Part shown: in pieces, positions 47,168 to 64,000 of the stretch
How the letters are laid out: each line of letters starts with the position of its first letter
Numbering within the stretch: position 1 is the first letter of the stretch
Assembly (NCBI GenBank): GCA_963710375.1
Contig: CAVPZX010000008.1
Location: 160,001 to 224,000, forward strand
Direction of reading: 5' to 3'
Source of the DNA: Nitrospirota bacterium
Lineage (GTDB): Bacteria > Nitrospirota > Thermodesulfovibrionia > Thermodesulfovibrionales > Dissulfurispiraceae
DNA length: 64,000 nt
The notes under the pieces: model-generated
What the model was told of the DNA's origin: nothing
What the model saw: the letters and a program-made list of their open reading frames with translations, nothing else
Databases searched by the model: none
Position numbers and translations under genes: made by a program

Positions 47168-47362
47168 TAACCCACATTATTAATAAATTTATACAAGGAG
47201 CAGGCGGGACATGGTGCTGAGCGGACTTTGACAGCCTAAGTGACACCAAGGATGGTGACACAGGCTGTCATAGCCTCGGAGCAAGGCTGGACGCCTCGCG
47301 AGAATGAGTGAAGCACTGTGGCCTGACTGCTCCTTGTATAAATTTATTAATAATGTGGGTTA
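47168..47362. mobile_element. MITE-like element, 36-bp perfect inverted repeats (including TA at each end)
   Basis: TAACCCACATTATTAATAAATTTATACAAGGAGCAG...CTGCTCCTTGTATAAATTTATTAATAATGTGGGTTA; internal TGACAGCCT...AGGCTGTCA hairpin. Confidence 0.8.
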
Positions 47363-49990
47363 TAGCTCATAAATACCCTCTAAGAAATTCTTTGCGTAAC
47401 GCTCAACTTTAGCGTCGTCATGCAATACCGCATCGAGTTGCCTTGTATAAGCAATCAGCCTGCCTAAGTTATCGAGCATCTTCTCCATGTCGTCGCGTAT
47501 TATATTCGCAATCCGCCCGATAATAAGATCTCCCTTTGTTTTCGTATTGAACCCGTATTCTTTTAAAATAATCGCGATCAACTCTATCCTCCTCGATCGT
47601 TTTACCATTTCGGTAGCGCCGCCGGTAAAACGGAAGTAGATGTGGTTGTTCCTCGCAGTTTCACTGCAATAACAATCGATCATGTTAAAGTGATAGCCGA
47701 ACTTGAGGCTCAGATTGAGGTATTCATGCGAAATAACTGCAACGTTGTTGGCCGCATAACTGTCGTTGCCGGAAACGATATCAGGCATTCGCATCATGCT
47801 CGTGAGAAAATCATTCACCCTTAATGATACAGGTCCGGAATGCCATGCCCCGGGATGCATCATACCATGAAGAACAGCCCTGAGAGGAATGGAAACAACT
47901 TGTTCGAAACTAACGCTGTCGCTCCCCGCCCTGCGATTCATAGTGTTGTCCAGACCGCCTCCTATATCCACCACGATAATTCCCGCAGGTATCGGCAGGT
48001 CCAACTTCATGGCCGCTTGTCCCTTTAGTCCGTTCATTGCATTGTCGATAAGCTCCATGACAGATTTCTCATGTATAAACCTAAGGATATCGTGCATGGT
48101 CTTGCACCCTTCAGGACTAAATCTTTCCAGCAGGGGGTCCACGAGGTTGAGAGGAGAAATATATCTCAGCACATATCTCTTTTTGCGGTACTCGTAGATA
48201 TCCTCCATCGCAGCCTGGCCGGAACGCGCGTGTTCAAGCACCTCTCTGAGTATCCCGTCATATACAATCAACATATCCTCATCGTCTACAGTCACAGTAA
48301 TCTCCTGCCCTTGCTTGAGAATCTGCGTTGATGAGCCTGCGTTGACAAACGCAGGCACCTTGAATTCCCTGCATAGAGAAGCCATATGACTTGTAAGCGA
48401 CCCGGTATCGGTAATAATTGCAGAAGCATAGGGCATAACCCGTATGAAATCAGACGAGTCATTCCTGGCTACAAGGACATCCCCCCTGGAAAATTCCTGA
48501 AGCCCGTCTGCATTCTTGAAAATGAAAACCCTGCCGGCGCCCACACCCTTTTGCACAACATTACCCCTGGCTTTCATCAGGATATTTGTCCCGTCATGAG
48601 AAAATGAGAGTTTAGAGCTTTCCTTATCGCCGGCTGCAATCTTCAACGGTCTCGCCTGAAGTATGAATATTTTTCCGTCCCTGTCTATGGCCCATTCAAT
48701 ATCCTGAGGCTGACGGAAGTAATTTTCAATGAGCATCGCCTGTCTTGCAAGCCCCAGCGCCTGTTCTTCCTGCAGTGAACTCTGACCTGTACTTGCCGCA
48801 GAAGCCTGTACCTGAGTCACACCACAGTCTTCGCGGCATACTATCATAGAACGCTTTTCCCCGATCCTTTTAGTTATTATTACAGGCGACGTACCCTTTC
48901 TGATCAAATAAAAATCTGCATCTGTCTGACCTTCAACTACCGAAGTGCCCAGTCCCCATGTCGAATTTATGATCATAGTGTCTGAATCTCCGCCCGGATT
49001 TGTCGAATAGATGACGCCGCTGACGGCTGCATCGACCATAAGCAGACAGCCGACCGCCATTTTTATGCTTCCGATAGCTACCCCAAGTTGCTGATGATAA
49101 GCTGTTGACTTGTCCGAAAACAGACTGGCAACCACCCGCTTGTACGCCTCCTGTACCGCCCTGTTCTCCAACGGTACATTCAGGACAGTATCAAACTGTC
49201 CCGCGAAAGAAAATTCCCTGTCCTCTGCCTGGGCGCTGCTCCGAACAGCGAGAAAGCATTTATCTCCATATTTCTCCCTGAAGGTCGATATGGCTTTGTC
49301 GAGAGCATGTTCAATACCGGAAGGGATATTTCCGTTCATGATCGAAGTATATATTTTGTTCAACGCCTCTTTTGGATAAATATCATTTCCTTCCAGCGCT
49401 GAAATCATTTCATTGATTTTATTATGACGAATAAATTCATCGTATGCGAACACAGTAACAGCAAATGCGTCAGGAATGTCCAGAGCAACGTTATTTTTCA
49501 ATTCAGCAAGATTGGCGTTTTTTCCGCCTACCTCATGCGCCATGCTCCATGTAAGCGCGCTATAAGGCAGCACATATTCCCTTTGATAAAAATAGGAATA
49601 GCGGCCATCCAATGTACTATCATTTCTTTTTGTTTCGATTAAATGGGCGCTGTCCCCGTTTTTATAAACAAGCAGTCTGACTTCTCTATCGATGCGGCCA
49701 AATACATCTTTGAGGCGAGGATATTTATTCTTTGTGAGGACATCGAAGCTTGCCAGAGACTCTGTTAGCGTATCGTACAATCCGGCATAGGCGCTCCTGA
49801 TATAAGAAATATCAAATATATAGTCACCGCCAAGTTTGTCGCCCATATCAGCGATGATCTCAACGGCCTTGTTATGACTTTCAAGCACCTGCCTAAACCG
49901 GGTGAACATTTCCTTAAAGGTCACATGGCCCGCGGTGAATGTGTCCCTGATAATTTTCTTACCTAATGCTATGATCTTATTGAAAGGCAT
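47360..49990 (-). CDS. PEP-synthase/PPDK-like protein (ATP-grasp + phospho-His domain, no full PEP-binding barrel)
   Basis: VGGKNANL, AVRSSA..ED..SFAGQF, WGLG..VVEG, PQDIEWA, LQARPL and GSLTSHMASLCRE motifs. Confidence 0.9.
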   Translation of the reverse strand: MPFNKIIALGKKIIRDTFTAGHVTFKEMFTRFRQVLESHNKAVEIIADMGDKLGGDYIFDISYIRSAYAGLYDTLTESLASFDVLTKNKYPRLKDVFGRIDREVRLLVYKNGDSAHLIETKRNDSTLDGRYSYFYQREYVLPYSALTWSMAHEVGGKNANLAELKNNVALDIPDAFAVTVFAYDEFIRHNKINEMISALEGNDIYPKEALNKIYTSIMNGNIPSGIEHALDKAISTFREKYGDKCFLAVRSSAQAEDREFSFAGQFDTVLNVPLENRAVQEAYKRVVASLFSDKSTAYHQQLGVAIGSIKMAVGCLLMVDAAVSGVIYSTNPGGDSDTMIINSTWGLGTSVVEGQTDADFYLIRKGTSPVIITKRIGEKRSMIVCREDCGVTQVQASAASTGQSSLQEEQALGLARQAMLIENYFRQPQDIEWAIDRDGKIFILQARPLKIAAGDKESSKLSFSHDGTNILMKARGNVVQKGVGAGRVFIFKNADGLQEFSRGDVLVARNDSSDFIRVMPYASAIITDTGSLTSHMASLCREFKVPAFVNAGSSTQILKQGQEITVTVDDEDMLIVYDGILREVLEHARSGQAAMEDIYEYRKKRYVLRYISPLNLVDPLLERFSPEGCKTMHDILRFIHEKSVMELIDNAMNGLKGQAAMKLDLPIPAGIIVVDIGGGLDNTMNRRAGSDSVSFEQVVSIPLRAVLHGMMHPGAWHSGPVSLRVNDFLTSMMRMPDIVSGNDSYAANNVAVISHEYLNLSLKFGYHFNMIDCYCSETARNNHIYFRFTGGATEMVKRSRRIELIAIILKEYGFNTKTKGDLIIGRIANIIRDDMEKMLDNLGRLIAYTRQLDAVLHDDAKVERYAKNFLEGIYEL

Positions 49991-49997
49991 AATTATG

Positions 49998-50076
49998 TTA
50001 ATTATGAATTAAAAATTAGGAATTACGAATGAATGTTTCTTCCATGATCCGCAATTCACAATTCATTATTCACTAT
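49998..50076. repeat. Inverted degenerate heptamer array (AATTA(C/T)G-type)
   Basis: AATTATGAATTAAAAATTAGGAATTACGAAT...ATCCGCAATTCACAATTCATTATT. Confidence 0.6.
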
Positions 50077-50438
50077 TAACTTAGCGCGCGTTGTATGGAT
50101 GCTTTAAGCTCCTTTATTTTGACCGGCTTGGGGAAAAAGTCATGGACATCTCCCCTCAACGCCTCTATCGCGGTATCGAGGTTGGCAAATGCCGTAATCA
50201 TGATTACCTTAACACCGGGGTAAAGCTGTTTTACCGTTCTCAGGATCTCCATGCCGTCTACCCCCTTCATTTTAAGGTCCGTAACCACTACGTCAAACTT
50301 TTGCTCAACCAGGCGCGCAAGCGCGGCCTCGCCGTTTAAAAAAGTCTCGACTGCATAGCCTTCCTGTTCCAGAGACATCTTCGCCATGTCGCCCACAATT
50401 TTTTCATCATCAACAATCATGATCCTGTAGTTGTTCAT
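50076..50438 (-). CDS. Single-domain response regulator
   Basis: IVDDE...TDLKM...MITAF...FPKP. Confidence 0.95.
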   Translation of the reverse strand: MNNYRIMIVDDEKIVGDMAKMSLEQEGYAVETFLNGEAALARLVEQKFDVVVTDLKMKGVDGMEILRTVKQLYPGVKVIMITAFANLDTAIEALRGDVHDFFPKPVKIKELKASIQRALS

Positions 50439-50456: not shown

Positions 50457-50557
50457 GTTAAGGTTAAGGTTAAGGTTGAGGTTAAGGAAGATAAGAACAA
50501 AACGATGATTTTTTTTGTCTTTAACTTTTTCTTAACCTTAACCTCAACCTCAACCTG
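50457..50557. repeat. Inverted hexamer array; supplies the kinase stop codon
   Basis: GTTAAGGTTAAGGTTAAGGTTGAGGTTAAG...CTTAACCTTAACCTCAACCTCAACCTG. Confidence 0.85.
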
Positions 50558-51950
50558 TTTTTTTATAGACCGGCAATTCTACAGTAAAGGTGGTACCGAC
50601 ACCTACCATGCTTTCCACCCTGATATCTCCTTTGTGCTTCTTGATAATTCCGTAGCTGACCGACAGCCCGAGCCCTGTCCCCCCCTCTCCCTTGGTGCTG
50701 AAGAACGGGTCGAATATGTGAGGCAGGAATTCGCGAGGTATTCCCTTTCCTGTATCCATGACCTTGATCTCCACAGAATCCCCGCCGCTCCCAAGCCTGG
50801 TTCCCAAAAAGAGCGTCTTGCCGGCCTCCATTGATTGTACCGCATTGGTGATAAGATTCACCATGACCTGCAGTATCTGGTACTCATCGATTAAGACATC
50901 TGGGAGATCCGGGACGAAGTCCAACTTAGTTTTGATATTGGAGATGTCGAGCATGTTTTGCATAATCTTGAGAGTCTTATGCATTACCGCATTGATGTCG
51001 GTCTCTTTCAGGTGGGCCTCTTTTGGTTTTGAGAAGTCAATCAAGTTTTTTATAATTTCCTTTATCCTCTCTGTCTCCTTCTCGACCTTATCCATGAATT
51101 CAATTCTCTGGTCCTTGTCCAGCTTATCATACATTTCAGCATAGGTCTGCGCCATCATTGAAATGTTATTCAGGGGGTTTGTCAATTCATGTGCCACGCC
51201 GGCAGTGAGTATTCCAAGGGACGCAAGCTTTTTGGACTGGATAAGGTCCTCTTCACGGTTCCTCAGTTCCTCGGACATTGAATTGATAGCTGCCATGACC
51301 GAACCGAATTCATCATCCGGAATTGCGCCCTCGATTCTCTTGAAATTGCCCTTGGATATCGATTTTGCAAGCTTCTCTATCTCCCTCAACGATAGCAGAA
51401 TCTTCTGAGAAATAAAATGGCTCACAAAAACAGCGCATATGAGAATCACCCAGAATGAGTAGAAAAGTATGAGCTTCGAGCGTGATATAATGTCATTTTC
51501 CGCTTTCCTCTCAAGACGGGTGATGGTATCTGAAAATTCACGCAGCATTTTACCTTCCGCACTTAACTTTGAGTTAAGGACGGGATCACTGTGAGAATTA
51601 TGCTTCACTTCATTCACGATATCGGAGTAATGATTCAAATGTGATTTAAGCAATACAAAGTTGTTCTCTCCAACACCACGGATAATGTCCCTGCTTGCGC
51701 TATCCAGCGATTGCTGGGCCTTCTCTATCTTCTCCTGGATATCGGAAAGAAAGTCCTGCTTATGGAAAATGAAATAGTTTTTCTCTGTAAGCCGCATTTC
51801 GAGAAAAGTAGCGTTCAGGTCATCCGCTATCTCAACAAATCTCAGCTTTGTCTGCATTTGATTGAGATTCTGCATTGCAAAAAAACCTATCAGCAATATC
51901 AGCCCGATATTGACTACATTGGAAAGTATAATTTTACTTTCTATCTTCAT
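50550..51950 (-). CDS. Membrane sensor histidine kinase (TM-periplasmic helical-TM-HAMP-HisKA-HATPase)
   Basis: Two TM helices; HAMP (DEFGSVMAAINSM); AHELTNPL; DTGKGI; GTGLGL; ATGA overlap with the upstream gene at 51947-51950. Confidence 0.94.
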   Translation of the reverse strand: MKIESKIILSNVVNIGLILLIGFFAMQNLNQMQTKLRFVEIADDLNATFLEMRLTEKNYFIFHKQDFLSDIQEKIEKAQQSLDSASRDIIRGVGENNFVLLKSHLNHYSDIVNEVKHNSHSDPVLNSKLSAEGKMLREFSDTITRLERKAENDIISRSKLILFYSFWVILICAVFVSHFISQKILLSLREIEKLAKSISKGNFKRIEGAIPDDEFGSVMAAINSMSEELRNREEDLIQSKKLASLGILTAGVAHELTNPLNNISMMAQTYAEMYDKLDKDQRIEFMDKVEKETERIKEIIKNLIDFSKPKEAHLKETDINAVMHKTLKIMQNMLDISNIKTKLDFVPDLPDVLIDEYQILQVMVNLITNAVQSMEAGKTLFLGTRLGSGGDSVEIKVMDTGKGIPREFLPHIFDPFFSTKGEGGTGLGLSVSYGIIKKHKGDIRVESMVGVGTTFTVELPVYKKTG

Positions 51951-53149
51951 CCAGGTACAGGGCACCTGGGGACTTCGGCTTGTTCATTTCTTACCGGCAT
52001 ATACCATAACCATCCGTCTATTGTCATCAATACTCCGGCTATGATCAAAAAACCGTCGATGGCTGTCAGAATACTGAAACCGAAATAGTGTATCAACCCT
52101 AACCCGAACCCCACAAAGGAAACCCCTGTCCTGATAAAAGCGAGCCCTGTCCTCGCCCTTGCATATATGGTGCGGTAGCAAGCAGCAACTGTACGTTGTG
52201 CCGCCAGAACATTTCTTTCACGCGCCAGATGGGTACGCTCCCTGCTGGAAGGCGAAGGATACAAAATGGTGCAGTGGTCCGCAAGAAAATCACCGAGACG
52301 GGCAAGCATAGTCTGTTTGGCAGGCAGGTATGCACCGGCCTGATCAATAAAATGATAGTTCTCAAGAAATTGCACGGTTGCCGCAGTCACTTCTACAAGC
52401 GTCTGCTCTTCGGGAGGCGTCATTCTCGATCTCCTTATTTTCAAATAAGCGAAGAGACCGAAGAGTGCAAGCAAAAACCCGGCTGCCATGACCCCGAATA
52501 AGAAATAAACGCGCGTCAACCTGTAATGGCGAATAAGTATGTCCGACACTGCGATAAGCCGCAACCCCCATCTGAGAAAAGAAAAGCCGGTCCTGGCCAT
52601 TGCCAGGTCGGTCCTGTAACATGCGAGCCGCGTCCTCCATTGGGCCATTGTGTTACGCCAGAAAGCCAGCCCGGTCCTTTCGGTTCCGATGAGATAGCCC
52701 GGCTTTTCATGCAGAAAATCCTGGATGAACCATTGTATATCCTCGCCGAGCGCCACCCAGTATTCATACTTCTCCGCCTTTATAAACGTTTTTACTTCGT
52801 CATGAACAGCAGGATCTGTTGGGTCATTCGCCGCTATGACCACCGTATCACCGTCTATAATAACCGGAAACCACTGATATATCGACAGTCTCTCCCCATC
52901 CAAACCCGTCAGCAGTTCAGGCGGGATCGGCATCCGCTCATCATATTCCAAAAAGGGACAGTGGTAATGATTAGAAAGCGCCTGCAGCAGAATATGTTTA
53001 GGTATGCGATACTCCGAGATAAGGATGCTTTCCACATCGATACCCCTGGCGATAGCTGCGCGTTCAGCATCGCAAATTCTATCCTCGGTCAGTACACCCC
53101 AACCGATCAGATCACTGAATTTCTTGGAAGCAATGTTATCAACGCTCAT
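51947..53149 (-). CDS. MshEN/T2SSE_N-like domain + 2 DUF202-like membrane units
   Basis: N-terminal KKFSDLIGWGVLTED...WFPVIIDGDTVVIAANDP; two R-T-x-x-A heptad ladders ending RTG(F/L)xFxR-TM-TM; start placed at MSVDN. Confidence 0.8.
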   Translation of the reverse strand: MSVDNIASKKFSDLIGWGVLTEDRICDAERAAIARGIDVESILISEYRIPKHILLQALSNHYHCPFLEYDERMPIPPELLTGLDGERLSIYQWFPVIIDGDTVVIAANDPTDPAVHDEVKTFIKAEKYEYWVALGEDIQWFIQDFLHEKPGYLIGTERTGLAFWRNTMAQWRTRLACYRTDLAMARTGFSFLRWGLRLIAVSDILIRHYRLTRVYFLFGVMAAGFLLALFGLFAYLKIRRSRMTPPEEQTLVEVTAATVQFLENYHFIDQAGAYLPAKQTMLARLGDFLADHCTILYPSPSSRERTHLARERNVLAAQRTVAACYRTIYARARTGLAFIRTGVSFVGFGLGLIHYFGFSILTAIDGFLIIAGVLMTIDGWLWYMPVRNEQAEVPRCPVPG

Positions 53150-54845
53150 CACTACTGAACACCACCTTGCCCCATGAACGGGCCGGTACACCGTAATCAG
53201 GTATTATAAGCTCCATTTCTCCATAACAGTACGGGTACTGTTTCCTTATTTTTTCCGCAGGGAAATGCCAGTACATTCCATCGATAAAGAGTGCCAATCC
53301 AACCATTATTAGCGACATATTAAATACGGTCCAGGCTAAATTGCCCGTGCCGAAGTAGACAAGGAGTTCCATGCCTACCGCGGCTATGCCGATTCCGGTC
53401 CTGATAATAGCCAGGCCGGTCCTCGACCGCGCCATTACCGTCCGCAGTCTGGCCATAACGTTTCTTCTATCAGCCAGCATGGTCCTGTCGAGGGCAAGAC
53501 CTGTAGTGGCCCAGATACCGGGGGCGTAAGACGGCCTGACCTGTGGAACGCACTTGTAATCAGAATCGGGCTGCTTCATCGCCGGAGGAAAGACAAAATC
53601 CCATATACTCTGTTTAGCCTGGGTCTTCCTGACTAAATCAAAGCTTATCGAACCGGCACGTCGGCCCGGTAAATACCAATAAAATCCTTCTGCCGCCATT
53701 GCAATGCCTGCCATAATAAGGGCAGCGTCAAAAAAAGTCCATGGCCCGGGGCGGAACTGACGCAATAGTCCAATACCGAATCCGCCACACGCAACACCCG
53801 TTCTGGTAAATGCCAGCCCGGTGCGTGCCCTCGCCATTTTTGTCCGGAAGCCTGCCAGCATTGTCCTTTCTTCGGCAAAGTCAGTTCTGTCACTGGCAAG
53901 GAACCTGCGCCTCATTACCGGAGACAGATTGCTCCATCTGGAACGCAGAGCAGCAGCCTCCTCTATATGATCAGTACGTCTAAATACAGGATTGTCACCG
54001 GGATTCACCACTTCCAGCACCGTGGTCCCCCATGTCGGTTCAGTGCCGTTAAAATCAAATGCTTTTCCCCCTGATTTCCGGGCAGGCAGATACCATAGCA
54101 AGCCGTCAACAGTCATAATGATGCCTGAAATTAATAATGCCGCTTCGAACACAGTCAATAAACCTACACCCAGAATCCTGAAAAGCACTATTGCGATAGC
54201 AATAAAAGCTACGCCTGTGCGGAAAAAGGCGAGTCCGGTCCTGCCCTTTGACAGAGCTGTCCTGATACAAGCCATCAAAGAGCGCCTGTCAGCCAGAAAT
54301 GTTCTCACTTTGGCCAAAGGCGTCCTGCCTGCGGTGGAGGGGAAATGGGGGTTCACATCAAAGTTATGTTCGACAATCCTTACAATATCCGGAGGCAAGG
54401 CAATAATAAAGTTAACCTTTTCAACCCGCAGGGTATCTTTGATATCCTTAACCAGGTCGGAATCGGAAGGGTCATACATAATTACCTCGGCGCGCTTTCC
54501 CCCCACATAAATGGGAAACCAAAGTTGGCGTTTGAGTTTTTCCATGTCAAGACGCATGGTAATAAAATATGAAGACAAGCCGCTCTCATCGTATTCGACA
54601 AAAGGGAAATCGAGATGCATTGTGAACGCCCTTCGGGACGGTATGATAGTCTCATCATATTCGACAAAAGGACAGTGGTAGAATTCCGAAAGGCAGAACA
54701 ATATTTCGTGCTTAGGAATTCCCTTTTCAATCAAACATTCTTCAGGGTATGTGCCAGATGCAACTGATTCACGTATGCACTCATCCAACGCGCTTTCGGT
54801 GATAACGCCTCTTCTTATAAGCCGCTCAAATTTAACGTTCAGCAT
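53139..54845 (-). CDS. MshEN/T2SSE_N-like domain + 3 DUF202-like membrane units
   Basis: Close paralog of 54969-56603; three RTGLAxxRTG-TM-TM units. Confidence 0.82.
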   Translation of the reverse strand: MLNVKFERLIRRGVITESALDECIRESVASGTYPEECLIEKGIPKHEILFCLSEFYHCPFVEYDETIIPSRRAFTMHLDFPFVEYDESGLSSYFITMRLDMEKLKRQLWFPIYVGGKRAEVIMYDPSDSDLVKDIKDTLRVEKVNFIIALPPDIVRIVEHNFDVNPHFPSTAGRTPLAKVRTFLADRRSLMACIRTALSKGRTGLAFFRTGVAFIAIAIVLFRILGVGLLTVFEAALLISGIIMTVDGLLWYLPARKSGGKAFDFNGTEPTWGTTVLEVVNPGDNPVFRRTDHIEEAAALRSRWSNLSPVMRRRFLASDRTDFAEERTMLAGFRTKMARARTGLAFTRTGVACGGFGIGLLRQFRPGPWTFFDAALIMAGIAMAAEGFYWYLPGRRAGSISFDLVRKTQAKQSIWDFVFPPAMKQPDSDYKCVPQVRPSYAPGIWATTGLALDRTMLADRRNVMARLRTVMARSRTGLAIIRTGIGIAAVGMELLVYFGTGNLAWTVFNMSLIMVGLALFIDGMYWHFPAEKIRKQYPYCYGEMELIIPDYGVPARSWGKVVFSSDER

Positions 54846-54968
54846 AGCAATAGTTTTTCAGCTTCCAGACTCGCCGGCCATTTTCATGCCAATGGTTATT
54901 ATAAATGATATAGTTCTCATAATAAAACACTTTCTCTTTCGGATAATGCATCCGTCACATCATGCACC

Positions 54969-56603
54969 CTAGTCATTATCGAACACCAACTTTTTCCATG
55001 AACTTGCCGGTTTCCCGTAATCAGGTATCGGGATTTCCATGTCTCCATAACAGTACGGGTACTGCTTTCTAATTTTCTCGGCCGGAATATGCCAGTAGTA
55101 CCCGTCTGCCATAGATGCCAGCCCGGTCACTATCAGTATTACATTGAATATTGTCCAGGCAATATTGCCTGTGCCGAAGAAAACAAGGAGTTCCGTGCCG
55201 ACCGCAGATATGCCTATTCCTGTTCTGACGAGTGCCAGGCCGGTCCTTGACCGCGCCATGACCGTCCGCAGCCTCGTCATGACGTTCCTCCTGTCAGCGA
55301 GCATAGTCCTTTCGAGGGCAAGTCCCGTAGTAGCCCATATGCCCTTAGAATGAGACTGCCTGACAGGTGGAATACATTGATACTCCGAACCAGGGTGTTT
55401 CAGTGCCGGAGGGAAAAGAAAATCCCATATGTTCTTTCCTGACTCCACCTTGCAGATTGCTTCCAAACTTGCAGCACCTGCATGGCGGCCCGGGACATAC
55501 CAGTAAAACCCCTCGGCTGCCATTGCAAGGCCGACGATAATAAGCGCGGCATCAAAGAAAGTCCATGGCCCGGGGCGGAACTGGCGCAATAGTGCGATAC
55601 CAAATCCGATAAATATAACGCCGGTGCGCGTAAATGCCAGCCCGGTACGCGCCATGGCCATCCAGGTCCGGTAGTATACGTGTATCGTCCTTTCTTCGGC
55701 AAAATCCGTCCTGTCGCTCGCAAGGAACCTGCGCCTCATGACCGGGGACAGGTTGCTCCATCGGGAGCGGAGAGCCGCCGCCCCTTCCACATGGCCGGTA
55801 CGGGTAAAAAGAGGGCTGTCACCGGGATTCGCCACTTCAAGAACAGTAGTTCCCCACGTAGGTTCGGTAGAAGTGCAATCGAACACTGTTTTGCCTGCTT
55901 TCCGGGTGGGCAGATACCATAGCAGGCCGTCAACAGTCATAATGATGCCTGATATTAACAATGGGAGTTCAAACAAGGTCAGAAGCCCTATACCAAAAAT
56001 CCTGAAAAGCGTAACGGCAATGGACAGGAAGGCGATGCCGGTGCGGATGAAGGCCAGTCCTGTTCTGCCTTTTGCCTGGGAGGTCCTGGTGCAAGCCGTC
56101 AAAGAACGTCTGTCAGCCAGATATGTTCTCACTTTGGCCAAAGCCGTCCTGCCGGCTGAGGCCGGGAAATGGGGATTCACATCGAAGTTGTGCTCGATGA
56201 TCCTCACGAGGTCAGACGGCATGGCTGCAACGAAATCGATATCCTGAACCATAAGTGTATCTTTGACGTCTTGAATTACATAAGGGTCGAAAGGACGATA
56301 GGCTATTACCTCGGCGCGCCCTTTACTGACAGCAAGGGGAAACCAGAGATTCCGTTTGAGTTTCTCCATATTGAGACGCCTGGTGAGAAAAAAGGAGGCA
56401 ATGACGCTCTCATCGTATTCGACAAAAGGACAACCGTAGAATTCCGCAAAGGAAAGCAATATCTCGTGCTTCGGAACACCTTTTTCTATCAACCATTCTT
56501 CAGGATATTTGCCCGATGCAAGTGACTCTTTTAGCCCCTCACTCAATTCCCCTTCAGTGAGAATTCCTCTTTTTACCAGTCGCTCGAATTTTTTATCATA
56601 CAT
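54969..56603 (-). CDS. MshEN/T2SSE_N-like domain + 3 DUF202-like membrane units
   Basis: KKFERLVKRGILTEGELSEGLKES...LWFPLAVSKGRAEVIAYRPFD; three RTGLAxxRTG-TM-TM units. Confidence 0.82.
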   Translation of the reverse strand: MYDKKFERLVKRGILTEGELSEGLKESLASGKYPEEWLIEKGVPKHEILLSFAEFYGCPFVEYDESVIASFFLTRRLNMEKLKRNLWFPLAVSKGRAEVIAYRPFDPYVIQDVKDTLMVQDIDFVAAMPSDLVRIIEHNFDVNPHFPASAGRTALAKVRTYLADRRSLTACTRTSQAKGRTGLAFIRTGIAFLSIAVTLFRIFGIGLLTLFELPLLISGIIMTVDGLLWYLPTRKAGKTVFDCTSTEPTWGTTVLEVANPGDSPLFTRTGHVEGAAALRSRWSNLSPVMRRRFLASDRTDFAEERTIHVYYRTWMAMARTGLAFTRTGVIFIGFGIALLRQFRPGPWTFFDAALIIVGLAMAAEGFYWYVPGRHAGAASLEAICKVESGKNIWDFLFPPALKHPGSEYQCIPPVRQSHSKGIWATTGLALERTMLADRRNVMTRLRTVMARSRTGLALVRTGIGISAVGTELLVFFGTGNIAWTIFNVILIVTGLASMADGYYWHIPAEKIRKQYPYCYGDMEIPIPDYGKPASSWKKLVFDND

Positions 56604-56615
56604 ATGGAAATTTAT

Positions 56616-56690
<75 letters not shown>

Positions 56691-57149: not shown

Positions 57150-59300
57150 TTATTCTATTTGCTGTTCGATCAGCTCAGCAGTATGCATAACTTTGATCGC
57201 AGAGCCTTCTTTGTCAAAACCTCCCTTTATCTGCATAACGCAGCCGGGACAATCCATGGCAACAATGGAAGCGGATGTGTCCCTGATGTTTTTGAGCTTC
57301 CGTTGCAGTATGGGGGCGGAAATTTCAGGGAGCTTGAGTGAATAAGTGCCTCCCATGCCGCAGCACATGTCCGACTCAAACATTTCGACCAGGTCAAATC
57401 CTGATTTTTTCAGAAGTTCCCTCGGCTGATCATAGACATGCATTGTTCTCTTCAGATGGCAGGAATCGTGATAAGTGAGCAAAGGGGATGACTTTTCGGG
57501 GAGACTGTTCTTAAAGGTCAAGCGGCCTTCATCAGCCAGATTCTTGACTAAGGTGGAGAAATCCATTGCCAGCGCAGAAACCTCACGTGCCTGGGGCAAC
57601 CAATCGTTTTTGCCAAGACTCTCAAAAGTGTTGATGAATTCGTGTTTCAGTGCCACAGTGCAAGTCGGACAGGCTGAGACAATGTGCTGGACGTCTTCTT
57701 TAAGCAGGGCTTTGATGTTGTCGATTGCATTTTGGCCCGCAACCTCGTATGCTCCGCTATAGCGCGCGGGCGCTCCACAGCAAGTCTGCTCTTCAGGGAA
57801 TACGACCTCTATTCCTGCCTTATTCAATATCTTCACAACTGCACTGCCCATATCCGGATATGCAAAGTCTATGAGGCATCCGGCAAAAAAAGCGACCTTG
57901 ACCTTCTTTTTAGATATTTGGGACTGACCGATTTCTTTAAATTTGTCCCTGAAGGGCACAGGGGCTATGGACGGAAGGCTTCTGCTCTCGGTAAGGTTCG
58001 ACAGAAACATCGGGAGGTGGCGGATAAACCCCCCCTTCGCAAAAGGTTTTTGCGTTAACGAGGCGGTGCGGAGCATCGAATGGAAGAGCCTGCGGTTGTT
58101 CACCACAGAGAAGATAGCCTTCTGGGCGATCGATTGCCCCGCGTCCTTTACGATACGGCGCCTGATTTCGAGTATCAGTTCGGGGATGTCGATCTTTGCC
58201 GGGCAGACCTCCTTGCAATTGCCGCACTGGATGCAGAGGCTCTGAATGTCTTCAGATTGCTTCATTTCATCAAACCATGCAGTGAGTATTGTGCCGATGC
58301 CGCCCGTATAGACCTTGCCGAAGACATGACCGCCAACGAGTCTGAAGACAGGACAGACGTTGAGGCACGAGGCGCAGCGTATGCACTGAAGCGCCTGTCT
58401 GAACTTTGGGTCATTCGCCATCTCTGTCCTGCGGTTGTCCATCAGAATGATATGGAGGTCTTTCAACGACCCATCAGTGTTAGGAGTCCGGCCGGTGATA
58501 ATAGATACATAACTGGTCAGCAACTGGGACGTAGCACTCTTCGGAAGCGCTGTCAGAATGGGGACAATGTCTTTAAAGTCAGCAACAAGTTTTTCGATAC
58601 CGATAATTGCGACATGGATCTTTGGAAGTGTAGTGACAAGCCGTGCATTCCCTTCATTGGTGACAATTACTATGCTGCCGGTCTCGGCCACTGCAATGTT
58701 GGCTCCCGAGATACCCATGTCGGCAGTAAGAAACTTTGTGCGGAGCCTGGCCCGCGCTACCTTGACGAGTTGAGGGATGTCAGTGCTAAGGCGCTCATCG
58801 ACCTCTTTGCTAAAAAGCTCTGCGACCTCCTCTTTGGTCATGTGGATTGCCGGAAGTACCATGTGTGAGGGCCTCTGCCCAGCAAGCTGGATGATCCATT
58901 CCCCAAGGTCGGTCTCATTTACAGAGATACCATGGTCTTCGAGATAAGGGTTCAAATGGATCTCTTCCGACGCCATGGACTTGGATTTGACAACCTTCCT
59001 GACGCCGTTCTTCCTGGCGAGGTTGACTATATATTCCTTAATTTTTTCAGGATCTGTCGTCCTGAAGACCTTAGCTCCTTTCGCCTCGGCATTCCTGGTA
59101 AAAACCTCTGCCAGTAGATCGAGATGAGACGCAGCATACGATTTCAGTTCTGCGATCCTGGCCCTGAGGGCCTCAAAATCTATCCCTTCGTAAGCCTTGG
59201 CACGACTCGTCCTGTAGGCTTCCGAAAACCTGCCGAGCGCGCCCGTCAGGTTCGCATTCTGCAGGGCCGTATTTATGGATTCTCTGAATTCTTTTTTCAT
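57150..59300 (-). CDS. L-lactate dehydrogenase Fe-S subunit, LutB(LldF)-LutA(LldE) fusion
   Basis: KSKSM..EE, ETDLGEWIIQL, TNEGN, CIRCASCLNVCP, CIQCGNCKEVCP and two CCG domains. Confidence 0.92.
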   Translation of the reverse strand: MKKEFRESINTALQNANLTGALGRFSEAYRTSRAKAYEGIDFEALRARIAELKSYAASHLDLLAEVFTRNAEAKGAKVFRTTDPEKIKEYIVNLARKNGVRKVVKSKSMASEEIHLNPYLEDHGISVNETDLGEWIIQLAGQRPSHMVLPAIHMTKEEVAELFSKEVDERLSTDIPQLVKVARARLRTKFLTADMGISGANIAVAETGSIVIVTNEGNARLVTTLPKIHVAIIGIEKLVADFKDIVPILTALPKSATSQLLTSYVSIITGRTPNTDGSLKDLHIILMDNRRTEMANDPKFRQALQCIRCASCLNVCPVFRLVGGHVFGKVYTGGIGTILTAWFDEMKQSEDIQSLCIQCGNCKEVCPAKIDIPELILEIRRRIVKDAGQSIAQKAIFSVVNNRRLFHSMLRTASLTQKPFAKGGFIRHLPMFLSNLTESRSLPSIAPVPFRDKFKEIGQSQISKKKVKVAFFAGCLIDFAYPDMGSAVVKILNKAGIEVVFPEEQTCCGAPARYSGAYEVAGQNAIDNIKALLKEDVQHIVSACPTCTVALKHEFINTFESLGKNDWLPQAREVSALAMDFSTLVKNLADEGRLTFKNSLPEKSSPLLTYHDSCHLKRTMHVYDQPRELLKKSGFDLVEMFESDMCCGMGGTYSLKLPEISAPILQRKLKNIRDTSASIVAMDCPGCVMQIKGGFDKEGSAIKVMHTAELIEQQIE

Positions 59301-59852
59301 TGATTCATCGCTCCAGGCCCATCGACAAATATTATGATAAGTCTTTCCGGGCCATGGACGCCGATGGTAAGCACACGTTCGATGTCAGCCTGTCCGGCTC
59401 GGTCCGGTAATTAACGCCATATAGCCGCTCTCTTTGGGATCAATCTTAGTCAGCAGAGATGGCAGGTCTGCCAGAAGCCTGTCAGTGGCTGCCAGGGCTA
59501 CGTGGATAAGCGGCAGCGAAGATGCCAGCCTCTGATCAACCGCCGTAGAATCCTGCATCAGTGATCCCGTATTTGCTATGGCCCAATCCATCTGGGTAAT
59601 CCCTATTCTGGATTCCGCAGCAGCCTTGCGGCTGAAGTCGAACTTAAGTCCCGGCACTTTCTCAGATAGCTGCTTCCTGTCAAGCCCGTCGAGAAAGCGG
59701 CAATCGGCCCAAACAGCATATGACCCGGGATTGTCGGCAATGCCCTCTTTTTGGAGAAGCTCGATAATAAAATCAAGTGCCTCTGCGTCTGAACGAAAAC
59801 GATGGACTTCCGCATTTACCGCTTCAGCACGCATTTTGAATATATCAAACAC
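59297..59852 (-). CDS. lutC: LutC/LldG LUD-domain protein (+1 frameshift near 59389)
   Basis: Removing one G restores ITGPSRTADIERVLTIGVHGP; corrected stop overlaps the next ATG (ATGA). A possible upstream ATG at 59886 would need a second frameshift. Confidence 0.88.
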
Positions 59853-59904
59853 AGCCCTGGTCCTTCAGCACGATCTTCTTTCCCATTAGTACTTCCTGCT
59901 TCAG

Positions 59905-61684
59905 CTATACCCCTGCTGGATTGCCCATGACTCTGGACATCACTGTAACCAGCAATGCGAGACCCGCAGTCAAACCAAGATATGTCAATCCGTCAGATGG
60001 AAATGCCGGCTTTGCGGCAGCAGCCGCAGTCTGCGGCGACCACAGGAGGAGCCGCGGCCGCCACTTTTACGGCTACAGGCACAATCCATTTGATGACATA
60101 TGCCTGCAGACAAGCCATAAGGCCGATAACGCTGGTTAGGATAATGGAATGTTTTAGGGTAAAGCGGAAGATATCAGATTCGTGCCCCACAAGTCCTACA
60201 GCCGCAGTTGCAACAGAAAGGGACTGAGGAGAAATCATTTTTCCGCAAACGCCTCCGGAAGAGTTTGCTGCCACCGTGACAATCGGGTCGACGCCTATCT
60301 GGGTAGCGGTCACGTACTGCAGCTTCCCAAAGAGTGCATTGGAAGAAGTATCGGAACCGGTCATAAATACGCCGAGCCAGCCTAAGAATGCGGCAAAGAA
60401 CGGGAAGAGTACGCCCGTCATCGCAAAGGCGTTTCCGAGGGTAATCACCATACCCGAGAAATTAAAGATGTAAGCAAATCCGAGGATCGAAGAGATTGTT
60501 AATACAGGCAAGCGAAGCTTCTTCAGCGTGTCTCCGGCAACACTTAACGCCGTCGAGATCGACGCGCCCATTACAGGTATCGAGAATAGTCCGACAAACA
60601 GGATAGCGGTCCCCGTTGCGCTAAGAATGTTGAATATGTATACTGCGGGCATCGGCTTCCCACCCCTGATGACCATATTGTGAAGTCCGGGTATCTGGAA
60701 TTTGGCGAGGCCGTAAAAATCGAGGGCTGCCTTGATGGGCTTGATGCCCCAGGCAGCCACAAAAATAGAAAGGATAAGAAAAGGCGCCCACGCCCTGAAG
60801 ACCTGCCCGCCTGTACATCCGAGTTTCCCTCTGCCGCAGGCTGCCGCTTCATGGTCGAAAGTCCAGCTCTCTTTAGGGTGCCAGAATCTGAGGAAGAATG
60901 TCAGGCAAAGGATCGAGGTGATGGACGCAAGGATATCCGGGAGCAAAGGTCCCAGAAAGTTGGAAGATAAATACTGTACAATCGCGAATGACCCTCCGCT
61001 CACAAAGCAGGCCGGCCAAACTTCCACGCCTTTCTTCCAGCCGGACATAAGCACCACAAGGTAGAGAGGGATAATAACACTGAGGAAAGGCAGGGTCCGG
61101 CCAACCATCTGGCTGAGAGCCATCTGATCAACTCCGGCAACCTGTGCGCCGACTATGATAGGTATTCCGATAGCGCCGAACGCAACCGGGGCGGTATTGG
61201 CTATAAGACATATACCGGCAGCATAAAGCGGATTGAAGCCGAGACCCATCAGCATTGCAGCGGTTATGGCTACCGGCGCACCGAAACCGGCAGCGCCTTC
61301 AAGGAACGCGCCGAAAGAAAAGGCTATAAGAAGGGCTTGCATACGCCGGTCATCCGATATGGCGGCAAGCGATTGCTTGATGATCTCGAACTGCCCCGTC
61401 TTTACAGAAAGGTTATAAATGAAAAGGGCTGTGACAATGATCCATGCGACCGGCCACAAACCGAACAAACAACCATTGAGCGTCGCAAGCACCGCATACT
61501 GTACAGGCATTCCATAGCCGATAATGGCAATGAGCAGGGCTATCCCAACAGCGCTCATTGCCGCCCAATGTCCTGCCATCCTTTTGAACGCCAGCGCCCA
61601 GAAAAGATATATTACGGGAACTGCCGCCATCAGGGCGGAAAGACCGAGATTCCCTAAAGGATCAATCACTGTTTGCCAAGGCAT
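59905..61684 (-). CDS. lutP: L-lactate permease (LctP family), probable +1 frameshift near 60035
   Basis: DRRMQALLIAFSFGAFLEGAAGFG, NTAPVAFGAIG, GSDTSSNALFG and GKMISPQS motifs; a shifted frame gives an extra TM helix (DGLTYLGLTAGLALLVTVM) ending at TAG 59905. Confidence 0.92.
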
Positions 61685-61794
61685 ATTCTTCCTCCTCGTT
61701 TAATACTGGAATTTTAACGATGATTTAGTTTATGGCATTGGGTCAAAGAAGAGAATCGACGTTAGTCTGATTTTATTCATAGGGTTTTGTCCTA

Positions 61795-61905
61795 TAAAAA
61801 AGGCAGGTTAAGGTTAAGGTTAAGGTTAAGAAAAAGAAAAAAGACAAGGATAAAGTCTTAACTTTATTTTCTCAATCTCAACCTTAACCTTAACCTGCCT
61901 TTTTT
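61795..61905. repeat. Inverted hexamer array flanked by A/T runs (terminator-like)
   Basis: AAAAAAGGCAGGTTAAGGTTAAGGTTAAGGTTAAG...CTCAACCTTAACCTTAACCTGCCTTTTTT. Confidence 0.85.
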
Positions 61906-64000
61906 TACCTGCTTTTTTCAGTACACTTGTCCACAAGGTAAACGATCGACTGATAGTCTATGCTGCTGTGACGGGTCAGCCCGATCTCGCAGGTGCGGCT
62001 ATTAGAATATCCCGCAGAGCAATCAGCCGGGATCGATCCTCTCAGTTCAGCAAGGGCAGACGCGTTAAGCTCGGGATGAGAAAAGCCCCTGTCTCCTGCG
62101 AAGCCGCAGCATCCGACAGCGGGAGGAGTAATGACCTTCTCTGCGCATGCCTCGGCAACAGCCCTGAATTTCCCCGCAAGTCCCATCTTCACCGAACTGC
62201 AGGTAACATGAACCGCTACAGTGTCCGGCGCTTTCCTGAACGTCAGCCGGTCCATGAGAAATGTGTGGATGAATTCCACCGGCTCGTAAAGCTTCAGCCC
62301 CGAACTAAAGGCATTCCTCATGCGGTACAAACATGGACTGGTGTCGCATAGCACTGGATATTCGTCCCCGCCGCAGGCCAGAAGCGCTTTTTCGAGTTCA
62401 GCAGACATCCGGTCTGCCTGCTCGAAAAAGCCTTTGCTTTCGAATGGCAGACCGCAGCATAACTTTTCGATCCCTTCAGGGAACAACACGTCGTACCCTG
62501 CCTTTCTCAGGATGGATAGCATAGCCTCGAATACCTTTCTTTGGTCTTTATCATATTTGGAAGGACCCATGGTCCTCACTATGCAGCTCGGGAAATAGAC
62601 AACGGCACGGTCCGAGCCGTTCCTGATATCCCGGAACCGAGGAGCGGAAATCCCCTTCGGCATGTGACGGTTCCAGCGGGAGCTGCTGATTCTCTCCATG
62701 AGTGAAGAACCGAGTACCGAGTGCAAGACCCCTGCAGCCTTTAAACCATATCTGATGCCGGTCAACGCCAGGGGATAGTGGTCAGCGACCCACCGGGCCG
62801 CACGGATGCCGGGCAGACCATGTTTAAGAGAGCGAAGATATTTAGTCAGCCGCCCGGTATCGATTGCTATGGGGCAGGCCGTTGCGCATAAGCCGTCAGT
62901 AGCGCATGTCTGCTCCCCCAGGTAATTGTAGCTGTTTTCGAGAACTCGAAGCAGTCCGCCATTGTTGCCGGCTGCCCTGAGCCGGGAAATCTCCCTTTGC
63001 ACCGCGATGCGCTGTCTCGGCGTCGTGGTAATGTCCTTCGAAGGACACTTGACCTCGCAGTATCCGCATTCTATGCACCTGTCCACGATCTCATGGGTTT
63101 TCGGAAGAGGTTTCAGGTTTTCTATGTGAACAGCCGGATTATCATTTATCATCACACCAGGATTCAGGATGTTGTCTGGATCGAAGGCTTTTTTTGTCCT
63201 TTTCATCAAATCATATGCCTTCCTGCCCCACTCCAGTTCGACAAAAGGCGCCATGTTCCTTCCGGTCCCATGCTCGCCCTTTAAAGAACCGTTATATTTT
63301 TTCACTACTACATTACAAACATCATCCATGAAACTTCGGTACCTTTTCACTTCTTCGGGTAAGTTAAAATCCTGTGTAAACACAAAATGCAGATTTCCAT
63401 CGAGGGCGTGGCCGAAGATGATCCCCTCGCTATAGCCGTGTTTTTTCATCAGCGCCTGTAACTCAACTGTAGCACTCGCAAGCTTTTCGATAGGGAAGGC
63501 AACATCCTCGATTATGACCGTAGTGCCGATTTTCCTGGCAGCGCCCACTGCCGGGAAAAGTCCTCTCCTGACGTCCCAGAGCGTTTCATATTCCTCCTTC
63601 AAATCGGTGAATGAAACCGGCAGGACTGTATGGATGGCCCGCAGGGAATCCATGATCTCGTCTATCTGTCTTCTCAGGGTATCCTGGTCACCTGCCCGTG
63701 TCTCTATGAGCAGGGCAGCGGCCTCCTGGTCGAGCGACTTCAGATATGAAGGCATTCCTTCCCTTTCTTCCACGGAACGTAGAGACTCCCTGTCCATCAA
63801 TTCCACCGCGGAGGAAGGTCCCCCTTTCAGCATGATCGTTGCCTTGCAGGCATTCTCTATGTCAGGGAAGATGATGAGCGAGCTGGCTTTATGCGTATGT
63901 TCGACGACTGTCGCATAAGTAATCTCGGAAATAAAGCCGAGCGTGCCTTCCGAACCGATCATTAAGTGCAGGATTATGTCTATTGGATCGGTGAAGTCCA
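61905..64000 (-). CDS. FAD-linked/Fe-S D-lactate dehydrogenase (Dld-II type), 5' end off the window
   Basis: GSEGTLGFI, GHALDGNLHF, GEHGTG, FDPDNILNPG, CIECGYCEVKCP and CCG domains; upstream of the lactate permease. Confidence 0.88.
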   Translation of the reverse strand, partial: DFTDPIDIILHLMIGSEGTLGFISEITYATVVEHTHKASSLIIFPDIENACKATIMLKGGPSSAVELMDRESLRSVEEREGMPSYLKSLDQEAAALLIETRAGDQDTLRRQIDEIMDSLRAIHTVLPVSFTDLKEEYETLWDVRRGLFPAVGAARKIGTTVIIEDVAFPIEKLASATVELQALMKKHGYSEGIIFGHALDGNLHFVFTQDFNLPEEVKRYRSFMDDVCNVVVKKYNGSLKGEHGTGRNMAPFVELEWGRKAYDLMKRTKKAFDPDNILNPGVMINDNPAVHIENLKPLPKTHEIVDRCIECGYCEVKCPSKDITTTPRQRIAVQREISRLRAAGNNGGLLRVLENSYNYLGEQTCATDGLCATACPIAIDTGRLTKYLRSLKHGLPGIRAARWVADHYPLALTGIRYGLKAAGVLHSVLGSSLMERISSSRWNRHMPKGISAPRFRDIRNGSDRAVVYFPSCIVRTMGPSKYDKDQRKVFEAMLSILRKAGYDVLFPEGIEKLCCGLPFESKGFFEQADRMSAELEKALLACGGDEYPVLCDTSPCLYRMRNAFSSGLKLYEPVEFIHTFLMDRLTFRKAPDTVAVHVTCSSVKMGLAGKFRAVAEACAEKVITPPAVGCCGFAGDRGFSHPELNASALAELRGSIPADCSAGYSNSRTCEIGLTRHSSIDYQSIVYLVDKCTEKSR

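Follow-up and report, generated by a model that had tools for sequence, protein, structure and literature searches.

Do three neighboring genes in a Nitrospirota genome encode a pseudo-pentameric, arginine-lined membrane pore related to that of the VTC complex? The genes, here called A, B and C, lie in a 64,000-nt stretch of contig CAVPZX010000008.1 (the window), and their products carry repeated DUF202 units. DUF202/YidH proteins are spread over bacteria and archaea, and we know of a job for them only in the eukaryotic VTC members. The membrane ring of yeast VTC, a polyphosphate polymerase and translocase, is described as three copies of Vtc1 with one Vtc3 and one Vtc4 (PDB 7ytj, 8i6v). An earlier note on this DNA proposed that a three-unit and a two-unit protein would likewise supply five inner helices.

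Results

Three minus-strand open reading frames with three, three and two units were located where the earlier note had placed them (Table 1), and the three proteins score 46.3, 40.1 and 24.3 bits against the DUF202 profile (PF02656), all above the curated cut-off of 23.4. A comes first and is followed by B after a gap of 123 nt; the start of C overlaps the end of B by 11 nt, and the longest frame of C begins with a GTG at 53191. The description of A and B as near-identical was too strong, as they share 68% identity and the MshEN domain of B contains a 22-residue insertion relative to A. Judged from the sequences, the pair is a local duplication that was retained.

Table 1. Features of the A/B/C locus, in positions of the window.
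Feature	Position	Strand	Remarks
Gene A	54969..56603	-	544 aa; MshEN-fold domain and 3 Arg-ladder DUF202 hairpins
Gene B	53139..54845	-	568 aa; paralog of A; 3 DUF202 units
Gene C	51947..53149	-	400 aa from ATG 53149; MshEN-fold domain and 2 DUF202 units
HAMP histidine kinase	50550..51950	-	ATG overlaps C stop (ATGA)
Receiver-only response regulator	50076..50438	-	120 aa
Dikinase-like enzyme	47360..49990	-	876 aa; PPDK_N, His swivel domain, C-terminal domain without Pfam family
tRNA-Gly(CCC)	56616..56690	-	ends 12 nt ahead of A start; context only
A unit 1 ladder R152-R187	56043..56150	-	6 Arg
A unit 2 ladder R291-R326	55626..55733	-	6 Arg
A unit 3 ladder R432-R460	55224..55310	-	5 Arg; invariant Thr425 occupies first place
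B unit 1 ladder R174-R209	54219..54326	-	6 Arg
B unit 2 ladder R313-R348	53802..53909	-	6 Arg
B unit 3 ladder R454-R482	53400..53486	-	5 Arg
C unit 1 ladder R158-R193	52571..52678	-	6 Arg
C unit 2 ladder R305-R340	52130..52237	-	6 Arg
A Glu471	55191..55193	-	Gly in most relatives; B equivalent Glu493; likely partner of C Arg197
C Arg197	52559..52561	-	Gly in most relatives

All eight units carry Arg runs at i+7 spacing (6/6/5 in A, 6/6/5 in B and 6/6 in C) that lead into TM1, as the earlier note had read from the letters; the two strings it quoted, from RTALAKV to RTGLAFI-RTG and from RTHLARE to RTGLAFI-RTG, are exact for A unit 1 (residues 152–189) and C unit 2 (residues 305–342). Among 20,000 shuffles per protein, at least one run of at least five Arg appeared in only 16, 41 and 17, and genome-wide such runs occur in 7 of 1,875 open frames of at least 250 aa, three of the seven being A, B and C. 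Each ladder Arg is conserved in 97–100% of rows (118 A-type, 120 C-type). The AlphaFold2 model of A contains two TM helices per unit and joins ladder and TM1 into one continuous helix in each (residues 152–203, 287–341 and 422–476). A classical YidH of ~130 aa, encoded elsewhere in the same genome, has three Arg in register, the ladder here being twice that length, in agreement with the earlier reading.

The three-unit and two-unit proteins are inherited together, as had been anticipated. C comes next at 76/76 testable A loci and A precedes C at 73/73 testable C loci. Unit totals among the 61 genomes with matches were exactly five in 54, eight in two and ten in one, with none at two, three or six, so that three-unit homologs do not commonly occur alone; in other groups, five strong units were counted in 5/5 genomes. 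No near-complete carrier was A-only or C-only. A natural five-unit fusion was found neither in 1,515 candidates of 701–2000 aa, which is weak evidence, nor in the top 150 cluster representatives. One candidate of 1003 aa with a six-stretch match (P0288) was rejected as a fusion, as it has repeated MshEN-like stretches and lacks any DUF202 unit. Matches in the ESM Atlas were DUF202 clusters only, with scores below 0.9.

Docking of A with C by ESMFold2 scored 0.67, against 0.00 for the best of three controls, and passed a mark that 116 of 157 solved pairs and 2 of 215 mismatched pairs also pass. Contact agreement between runs was at least 90% and partner pLDDT at least 61, at a complex pLDDT of only 62–67. 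The test is also passed by cousins of a true partner; A2, A+B and C oligomers could thus pass, and the A+C pass may come from a memorized structure of the VTC ring, which has been solved. The predicted ring, in the order A1-A2-A3-C1-C2, closes via both edge helices, with Arg in both interfaces, and forms a tube of ~8 nm. Inter-chain contacts involve A1, A3 and both C helices, and A2 makes none; heptad positions a and e are common to both contact faces, and the faces are set ~110 degrees from each other. A slip of ~six residues at the A3/C1 junction suggests that the arginines may wind as a spiral with a single seam rather than stack as flat rings. Of the proposed stacked Arg rings, the five helices and their inward-facing Arg stand in the model, but flatness may not. 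The count of five inner TM1 helices round one axis is taken solely from the genes and this prediction. By its similarity to A, B is a likely alternative partner of C.

A further hint of contact comes from A Glu471 and C Arg197, which were gained together in 7/7 pairs and are two of just four changes unique to their clade. They likely form a lineage-specific charge pair tying A3 to C1, and count as a single evolutionary event. In a different clade, an Arg was gained in A3 TM1 without visible partner. A second charge pair, A463/C242, was discarded as a clade marker whose residues are distant in the fold. Covariation over 128 paired A/C loci gave an unusable signal (Neff 13.6), and an intra-chain charge scan found nothing local.

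With respect to VTC, the unit Arg at positions −7 and 0 correspond to YidH R15/R22 (hhalign 92.9%), which align to Vtc1 K24/R31 (E 0.8–0.9), residues described as pore-facing in VTC (PMC9911596; bioRxiv 10.1101/2023.01.27.525886). In this register, via YidH, the K24 and R31 positions hold Arg in 97–100% of rows in all five units. The hydrophobic constriction (gate) of VTC is described as M42/L716/L640; at the M42 position, all five units have Gly, Ala or Ser in 95–100% of rows. Neither A nor the unit profile gave a sequence match to VTC chains, and VTC was not among the listed fold-search matches for the whole 544-aa A model, a search in which single helical hairpins score poorly. The VTC polymerase domain (PF09359) was not found in the genome, which is 98.8% complete.

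Fold searches with the A model clearly listed the MshEN domain alone (5htl: Z 14.2, rmsd 3.2, 138 aligned), and its Pfam score is also above cut-off. The tandem c-di-GMP motif RLGxxLLxxG...LxxxLxxQ occurs in 0/118 A rows and 0/120 C rows, and c-di-GMP gating was rejected; a change of MshEN Gly11 is described as abolishing c-di-GMP binding. XpsE, which does not bind c-di-GMP, is likewise reported to lack the motif in its MshEN domain (PMC5013675). The MshEN-fold domains of A, B and C may rather be protein-docking sites.

A histidine kinase follows C at 50/65 loci, and the dikinase lies within 4 kb after C at 42/53 loci and co-occurs with the pair in 39/42 carrier genomes, a match lacking in the other three. 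This enzyme has no PEP-binding barrel, and none of the fold matches to its folded C-terminal domain (pLDDT 77) reached significance (best Foldseek E 0.024, best Z 5.1); the top Foldseek match, yeast exopolyphosphatase, was not accepted (E 0.024, TM 0.19). As to hosts, dsrA is present in 41/42 carriers, an association confounded by kinship; in this genome aprA is present, and dsrA and dsrB were unmatched. Polyphosphate kinases are rare, with ppk1 in 3/42 carriers and ppk2 in 0/42. A TauE-family gene stands upstream at 31/55 loci only, and none lies in this window. We know of only poor maps of sulfur-oxyanion traffic in Dsr-type sulfur respirers. The DVU0148-0150 cluster is presumably TauE-like and carries no weight in the argument. 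It has been reported as syntrophy-induced, DVU0149 being called hypothetical (PMC4265775).

Uncharacterised single-unit DUF202 relatives in Desulfobacterota-type genomes, matched by the unit profile at 99.9%, have 12–29 Arg heptads and would reach up to ~30 nm. At 8/14 of their loci the same dikinase and receiver genes adjoin; the kinase gene is often close as well, with none nearby at 3/14. Some are fused to a C-terminal receiver domain, which would link the barrel to phospho-signaling. The apparent mutual exclusion with the A/C pair (0/22 genomes with both) is no more than chance would give at these frequencies.

Discussion

The reading we prefer, at a probability of roughly 0.57, is that A, or likely B, combines 1:1 with C into a pseudo-pentameric inner-membrane barrel that would serve as a phosphorylation-regulated conduit for anions, the cargo probably being other than polyphosphate. 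Five long helices would aim 29 arginines at the axis, in a lumen lined by Arg (a) and Ala/Ser/Gly (e); about four heptads would form a cytoplasmic stalk and the remainder would span the membrane, with five outer TM2 helices behind. The co-encoded kinase, receiver and dikinase may gate such a barrel. The likeliest cargo would be a small sulfur or phosphorus oxyanion, because the hosts are Dsr-type sulfur respirers with TauE-family genes upstream. Of the VTC-like pore that the earlier note had suggested, the 3+2 architecture, the closed five-helix model and the Vtc1 register thus hold up, but the polyphosphate role does not, given the missing polymerase domain and the scarcity of ppk1 and ppk2.

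A lumen with 29 arginines could bind anions too tightly for conduction, and the same barrel might instead be non-conducting, its anion-binding Arg stalk serving as a structural core or as a sensor and signaling to the kinase, receiver and dikinase. The kinase that so often follows C, here with overlapping stop and start, fits this option, as does the free length of 12–29 heptads in relatives, some with a receiver, which would be as natural for a stalk as for a pore. We nevertheless regard it as doubtful, since all five units keep the lumen residues of the membrane part small, conduction is known for the homologous VTC ring and some single-unit loci have no nearby kinase. A true VTC counterpart, with polyphosphate or some other phosphorylated polyanion produced by the dikinase-like enzyme and fed through the barrel, appears very unlikely: the homology to the VTC pore, the dikinase traveling with the pair without a PEP-binding barrel and the suitability of a 29-Arg track for a polymer speak for it, but the polymerase domain is missing, polyphosphate kinases are nearly absent from carriers, the C-terminal domain of the dikinase has no significant fold match and three carriers lack the dikinase match. 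Least probable is another stoichiometry (an A2 hexamer, a C oligomer or an A2C2 ten-helix ring), with 3+2 as an old duplication kept in one operon. A and C are indeed paralogous (units 33–42% alike to A unit 1) and the candidates searched held no five-unit fusion, but near-complete carriers never have A or C only, the 1:1 model is closed on both sides and the Glu/Arg pair connects A3 with C1.

Whether it acts as an anion channel or as a sensor, an Arg tube coupled in this way to kinase, receiver and orphan dikinase in Dsr-type sulfur respirers would be of a kind not described before; the open-access literature searched contained no description of the family. The family is the clearest genetic sign of a bacterial DUF202 module working as a pentamer and would bear on the origin of the VTC pore; A and C together make a construct of just two genes, open to purification and assay. 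In a bolder version that we consider quite unlikely, the barrel would be the bacterial equivalent of the VTC pore: five non-identical helices from the two chains would make a continuous 29-Arg spiral with one seam, along which a polyanion made or phosphorylated by the dikinase would cross the inner membrane under two-component control. If true, sulfur-respiring bacteria would have a new machine for polyanion export that can do without any known polyphosphate kinase, and single-unit relatives would extend the same tube to ~30 nm.

Compared to known systems, the MshEN-fold domain shares the fold of the MshEN/GSPII N-terminal domain of the ATPases PilB, MshE and XpsE, whereas no ATPase domain follows it in A, B and C. 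The single-unit relatives have one unit per chain and no MshEN domain, unlike A and C, and would therefore need self-assembly. Bacterial YidH (PF02656) shares motif and TM1 register with the A/B/C units, but has a single unit in ~130 aa, three Arg and no soluble domain, in contrast to 400–568 aa and two or three units with 5–6 Arg each; it is described as a d-alanine export candidate without effect in the uptake assay reported, its function not being established there (PMC10299036). The A/B/C system is not a VTC, because its units have two TM helices where those of VTC have three, and because it has no polymerase and, with small residues at the M42 gate, no hydrophobic gate. VTC further differs in being built from five chains rather than two with 3+2 tandem units, in having about two basic residues per helix instead of 5–6 Arg, in its TTM polymerase and SPX domains, neither of which occurs in A, B or C, and in making polyphosphate, whereas the A/C hosts mostly lack polyphosphate kinases. 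What the VTC ring has, and what is likewise predicted for A+C, is a DUF202 module with five inner TM1 helices and seven-spaced basic residues at the K24/R31 positions.

Arginine ladders and soluble domain of A, B and C

In each of the three adjacent genes A, B and C, an N-terminal MshEN domain and DUF202 units match above the Pfam cut-off. B and C overlap by 11 nt, and the C stop codon overlaps the start of a HAMP histidine kinase, which is followed by a receiver-only regulator and then a dikinase-like enzyme. The earlier note described A and B as near-identical, which is overstated at 68% identity. Its other observation, Arg at nearly every seventh residue (heptad position a) running into TM1, holds: we found runs of 6/6/5 in both A and B and of 6/6 in C, and even one run of five occurred in just 16, 41 and 17 of 20,000 shuffled A, B and C proteins, respectively. 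Among the closest 118 of 961 A-type and 120 of 1,182 C-type matches, the ladder Arg are 97–100% conserved at every position, and heptad positions b, d and e are occupied by Thr/Asn, Leu/Met and Ala/Ser, respectively. In an AlphaFold2 model of A (pLDDT 83), ladder and TM1 of each unit form a single helix of 52–55 residues, followed by one return helix. The classical YidH of the window's genome has three Arg in ladder register and might in principle serve as an additional subunit; its gene stands after PAP2-like and glycosyltransferase-like genes (by look of sequence).

The N-terminal domain adopts the MshEN fold (Z 14.2, rmsd 3.2, 138 aligned), but the RLG motif, whose Gly is required for binding in MshEN domains according to an excerpt of the source (PMC5013675), is absent from every aligned row. 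The insertion in B repeats the motif PFVEYDE, and relatives of 568–569 aa suggest that it is common to the B clade. Upstream of A, TauE/Usp genes occupy the place of tRNA-Gly(CCC) in many relatives; the lactate-utilisation cluster beyond it comprises a LUD/CCG Fe-S protein (Pfam) and then genes that look LutC-like, lactate-permease-like and FAD oxidase-like.

Features and loci of the A/B/C system and its relatives (L-numbers, fetched loci)
Feature	Location	Strand	Remark
Gene A	window 54969-56603	minus	544 aa
Gene B	window 53139-54845	minus	568 aa
Insertion in MshEN domain of B	B residues about 57-90	minus	22 residues
Gene C	window 51947-53149	minus	400 aa
Dikinase C-terminal domain	window 47360-48253		
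tRNA-Gly(CCC)	window 56616-56690	minus	ends 12 nt ahead of A start codon
Lactate-utilisation cluster	window 57150-63962	minus	upstream of A
Classical YidH/DUF202 gene	L159:5978-6370 (G000, the window's genome, C3 93977-94369)		130 aa
TIGR02186-like gene, TauE+Usp genes, second dikinase (window's genome)	L207:6963-7889, L208:8583-10447, L209:7582-10761		scattered over other contigs/loci
Single-unit relatives inspected	L190:7726-8778, L203:2394-3347, L202:7928-8860		one receiver fusion, two with 29 heptads
Cytidylate-kinase-like gene before single-unit gene	L191-L196, L199, L201		268-278 aa

Co-inheritance and gene neighbourhood

The proposed partnership of 3-unit and 2-unit proteins is supported by their co-occurrence. 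Of 78 A-profile genome loci (fetched from the best 80 of 233 matches), 76 are followed directly by a codirectional C-type gene (cut by a contig end in one case, split over two frames in another), and the remaining two stop at a contig edge. Likewise, an A-type gene precedes C in 73 of 80 metagenome loci (the best 80 of 220 C-profile matches); in the other seven the contig begins within 150 nt. Within the window's phylum, the unit profile matched 61 of 401 whole genomes, with exactly five units in 54, eight in two (the window's genome and a congener), ten in one (two pairs) and one or four in four (three 63–81% complete, the fourth a weak match); none of the 61 had two, three or six units, these genomes being kin and their counts not independent. 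Five genomes from other groups each hold five strong units. The relatives bear Nitrospirota names (Thermodesulfovibrionales, Dissulfurispiraceae), alongside some Desulfobacterota-type genomes. Two A-type genes occur in just 3 of the 78 loci; in a quick tree A and B copies form separate clades, which would make them one duplication retained in several species.

The kinase gene comes after C at 50 of 65 loci and the dikinase gene at 42 of 53, and TauE stands ahead of A in 31 of 55, usually alongside a TIGR02186-like protein and Usp genes. In the window's genome, about 5 kb separate the TIGR02186-like gene from ppx-like and ppk1 genes. The dikinase has an ATP-binding and a His domain; its C-terminal domain, 300 residues long, folds well (pLDDT 77) but into no recognised fold, contains invariant His, Asp and Arg residues and gave neither a Pfam family nor a significant structural match.

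A profile search also revealed one-unit proteins with long ladders (hhalign to the unit, 99.9%). In a Desulfobacterota-type phylum the unit matched in 22 of 401 genomes, of which 5 carry the pair, 13 single-unit genes (14 genes), one a cut gene and three weak matches. The 14 genes encode 12–29 Arg heptads; dikinase and receiver genes adjoin eight, with TauE and a TIGR02186-like gene also near six, and one relative with 12 heptads is fused to a receiver. This makes the pair one form of a wider module, which is likely under phospho-control. Both 29-heptad relatives consist of near-perfect RTELANK-type repeats, and the gene ahead of 8 of the 14 encodes a cytidylate-kinase-like protein that contains a weak BON domain (Pfam checked for three).

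Predicted A+C assembly

With A 140-520 and C 144-392 as input, ESMFold2 scored the complex at 0.67 vs. 0.00 for the best control. Among reference pairs, 116 of 157 solved ones and 2 of 215 mismatched ones reached the mark, a calibration that is approximate for this run because our own alignments were supplied. At least 90% of contacts agreed between runs at a partner pLDDT of at least 61, which is modest; the model may also remember the VTC ring, and cousins of true partners pass too. Contacts to C are made by A1 and A3, the inner helices of the first and third units of A, and none by A2, while both C1 and C2 are involved. The interface faces (a/b/e/f on A1 and C1, g/a/d/e on A3 and C2) imply the closed ring order A1-A2-A3-C1-C2 and lie about 110 degrees apart vs. 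the 108 of a pentagon (rough measure). Both faces include the Arg at a and the small residue at e; asked whether the Arg face outward, the model thus answers inward. A five-helix, Arg-lined A+C heterodimer is likely.

In this model, the C2/A1 junction is in sequence register (+1 residue) and the A3/C1 junction is shifted by about six residues (contact ranges and top pairs R446-R172, R453-R179 and R460-R186), so that, with parallel helices, the other three junctions must supply +5. The 29 Arg would then form a spiral, and the first heptad of A3 would overhang where the invariant Thr425 replaces Arg. Among 134 pairs, A Gly471 to Glu occurs together with C Gly197 to Arg in seven of seven, and one further pair has Lys197 in C alone. 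Glu471 and Arg197 are two of only four changes unique to their clade, and both occupy lumen e positions, about 8 Å apart in an ideal pentamer in the slipped register vs. 13 Å in sequence register. This pair, although one evolutionary event, gives the seam independent support from sequence, and the presence of Glu in both A and B supports pairing of each with C. In a different clade, which contains Thermodesulfovibrio (L023, L024, L107, L114), residue A463 of TM1 is an unexplained Arg and C has changed at many sites that are invariant elsewhere, possibly reflecting relaxed or altered function.

Function and comparison with VTC

The favoured functional reading is anion conduction; taken as a whole, the statement that a five-helix, Arg-lined A+C barrel conducts an anion has a probability of about 0.57. 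The main rival, in which the same barrel is a non-conducting sensor stalk, appears rather unlikely. In listings of open-access papers, we found none describing the A/C pair family.

No polymerase domain was found in A, B, C or the window's genome (98.8% complete), and of 42 pair-carrying genomes picked for completeness, 41 have dsrA, 39 the dikinase domain, 3 ppk1 and none ppk2. This makes polyphosphate improbable as the cargo unless it is a product of the dikinase. The window's genome has aprA but no match for dsrA and dsrB, a loss or an assembly gap, whereas dsrA is present in the congener and all 40 remaining carriers examined.

According to excerpts of the published work, VTC assembles as a 3:1:1 pentamer, each subunit having three TM helices, and five TM1 helices line its pore, in which Vtc1 K24 and R31 form basic rings and M42 the gate (PMC9911596; bioRxiv 10.1101/2023.01.27.525886), and DUF202 is the listing given for diatom Vtc proteins (excerpt of PMC7283521). 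The unit aligns to YidH at 92.9%, and Vtc1 chains are the best PDB matches of YidH (E 0.8–0.9); through both alignments, unit Arg −7 and 0 fall on K24 and R31. Of the VTC-like pentameric pore proposed earlier, the predicted five-helix ring and these basic residues are supported; a polyphosphate role is not. A+C is built like the VTC pore without being a VTC member. On the cytoplasmic side its ladder is longer by three heptads, and it has one further Arg deeper in; the M42 gate position is Gly/Ala/Ser in 95–100% of A/C-type rows, and TM1 is followed by one return helix per unit (AlphaFold2), in contrast to the three TM helices reported for each VTC subunit.
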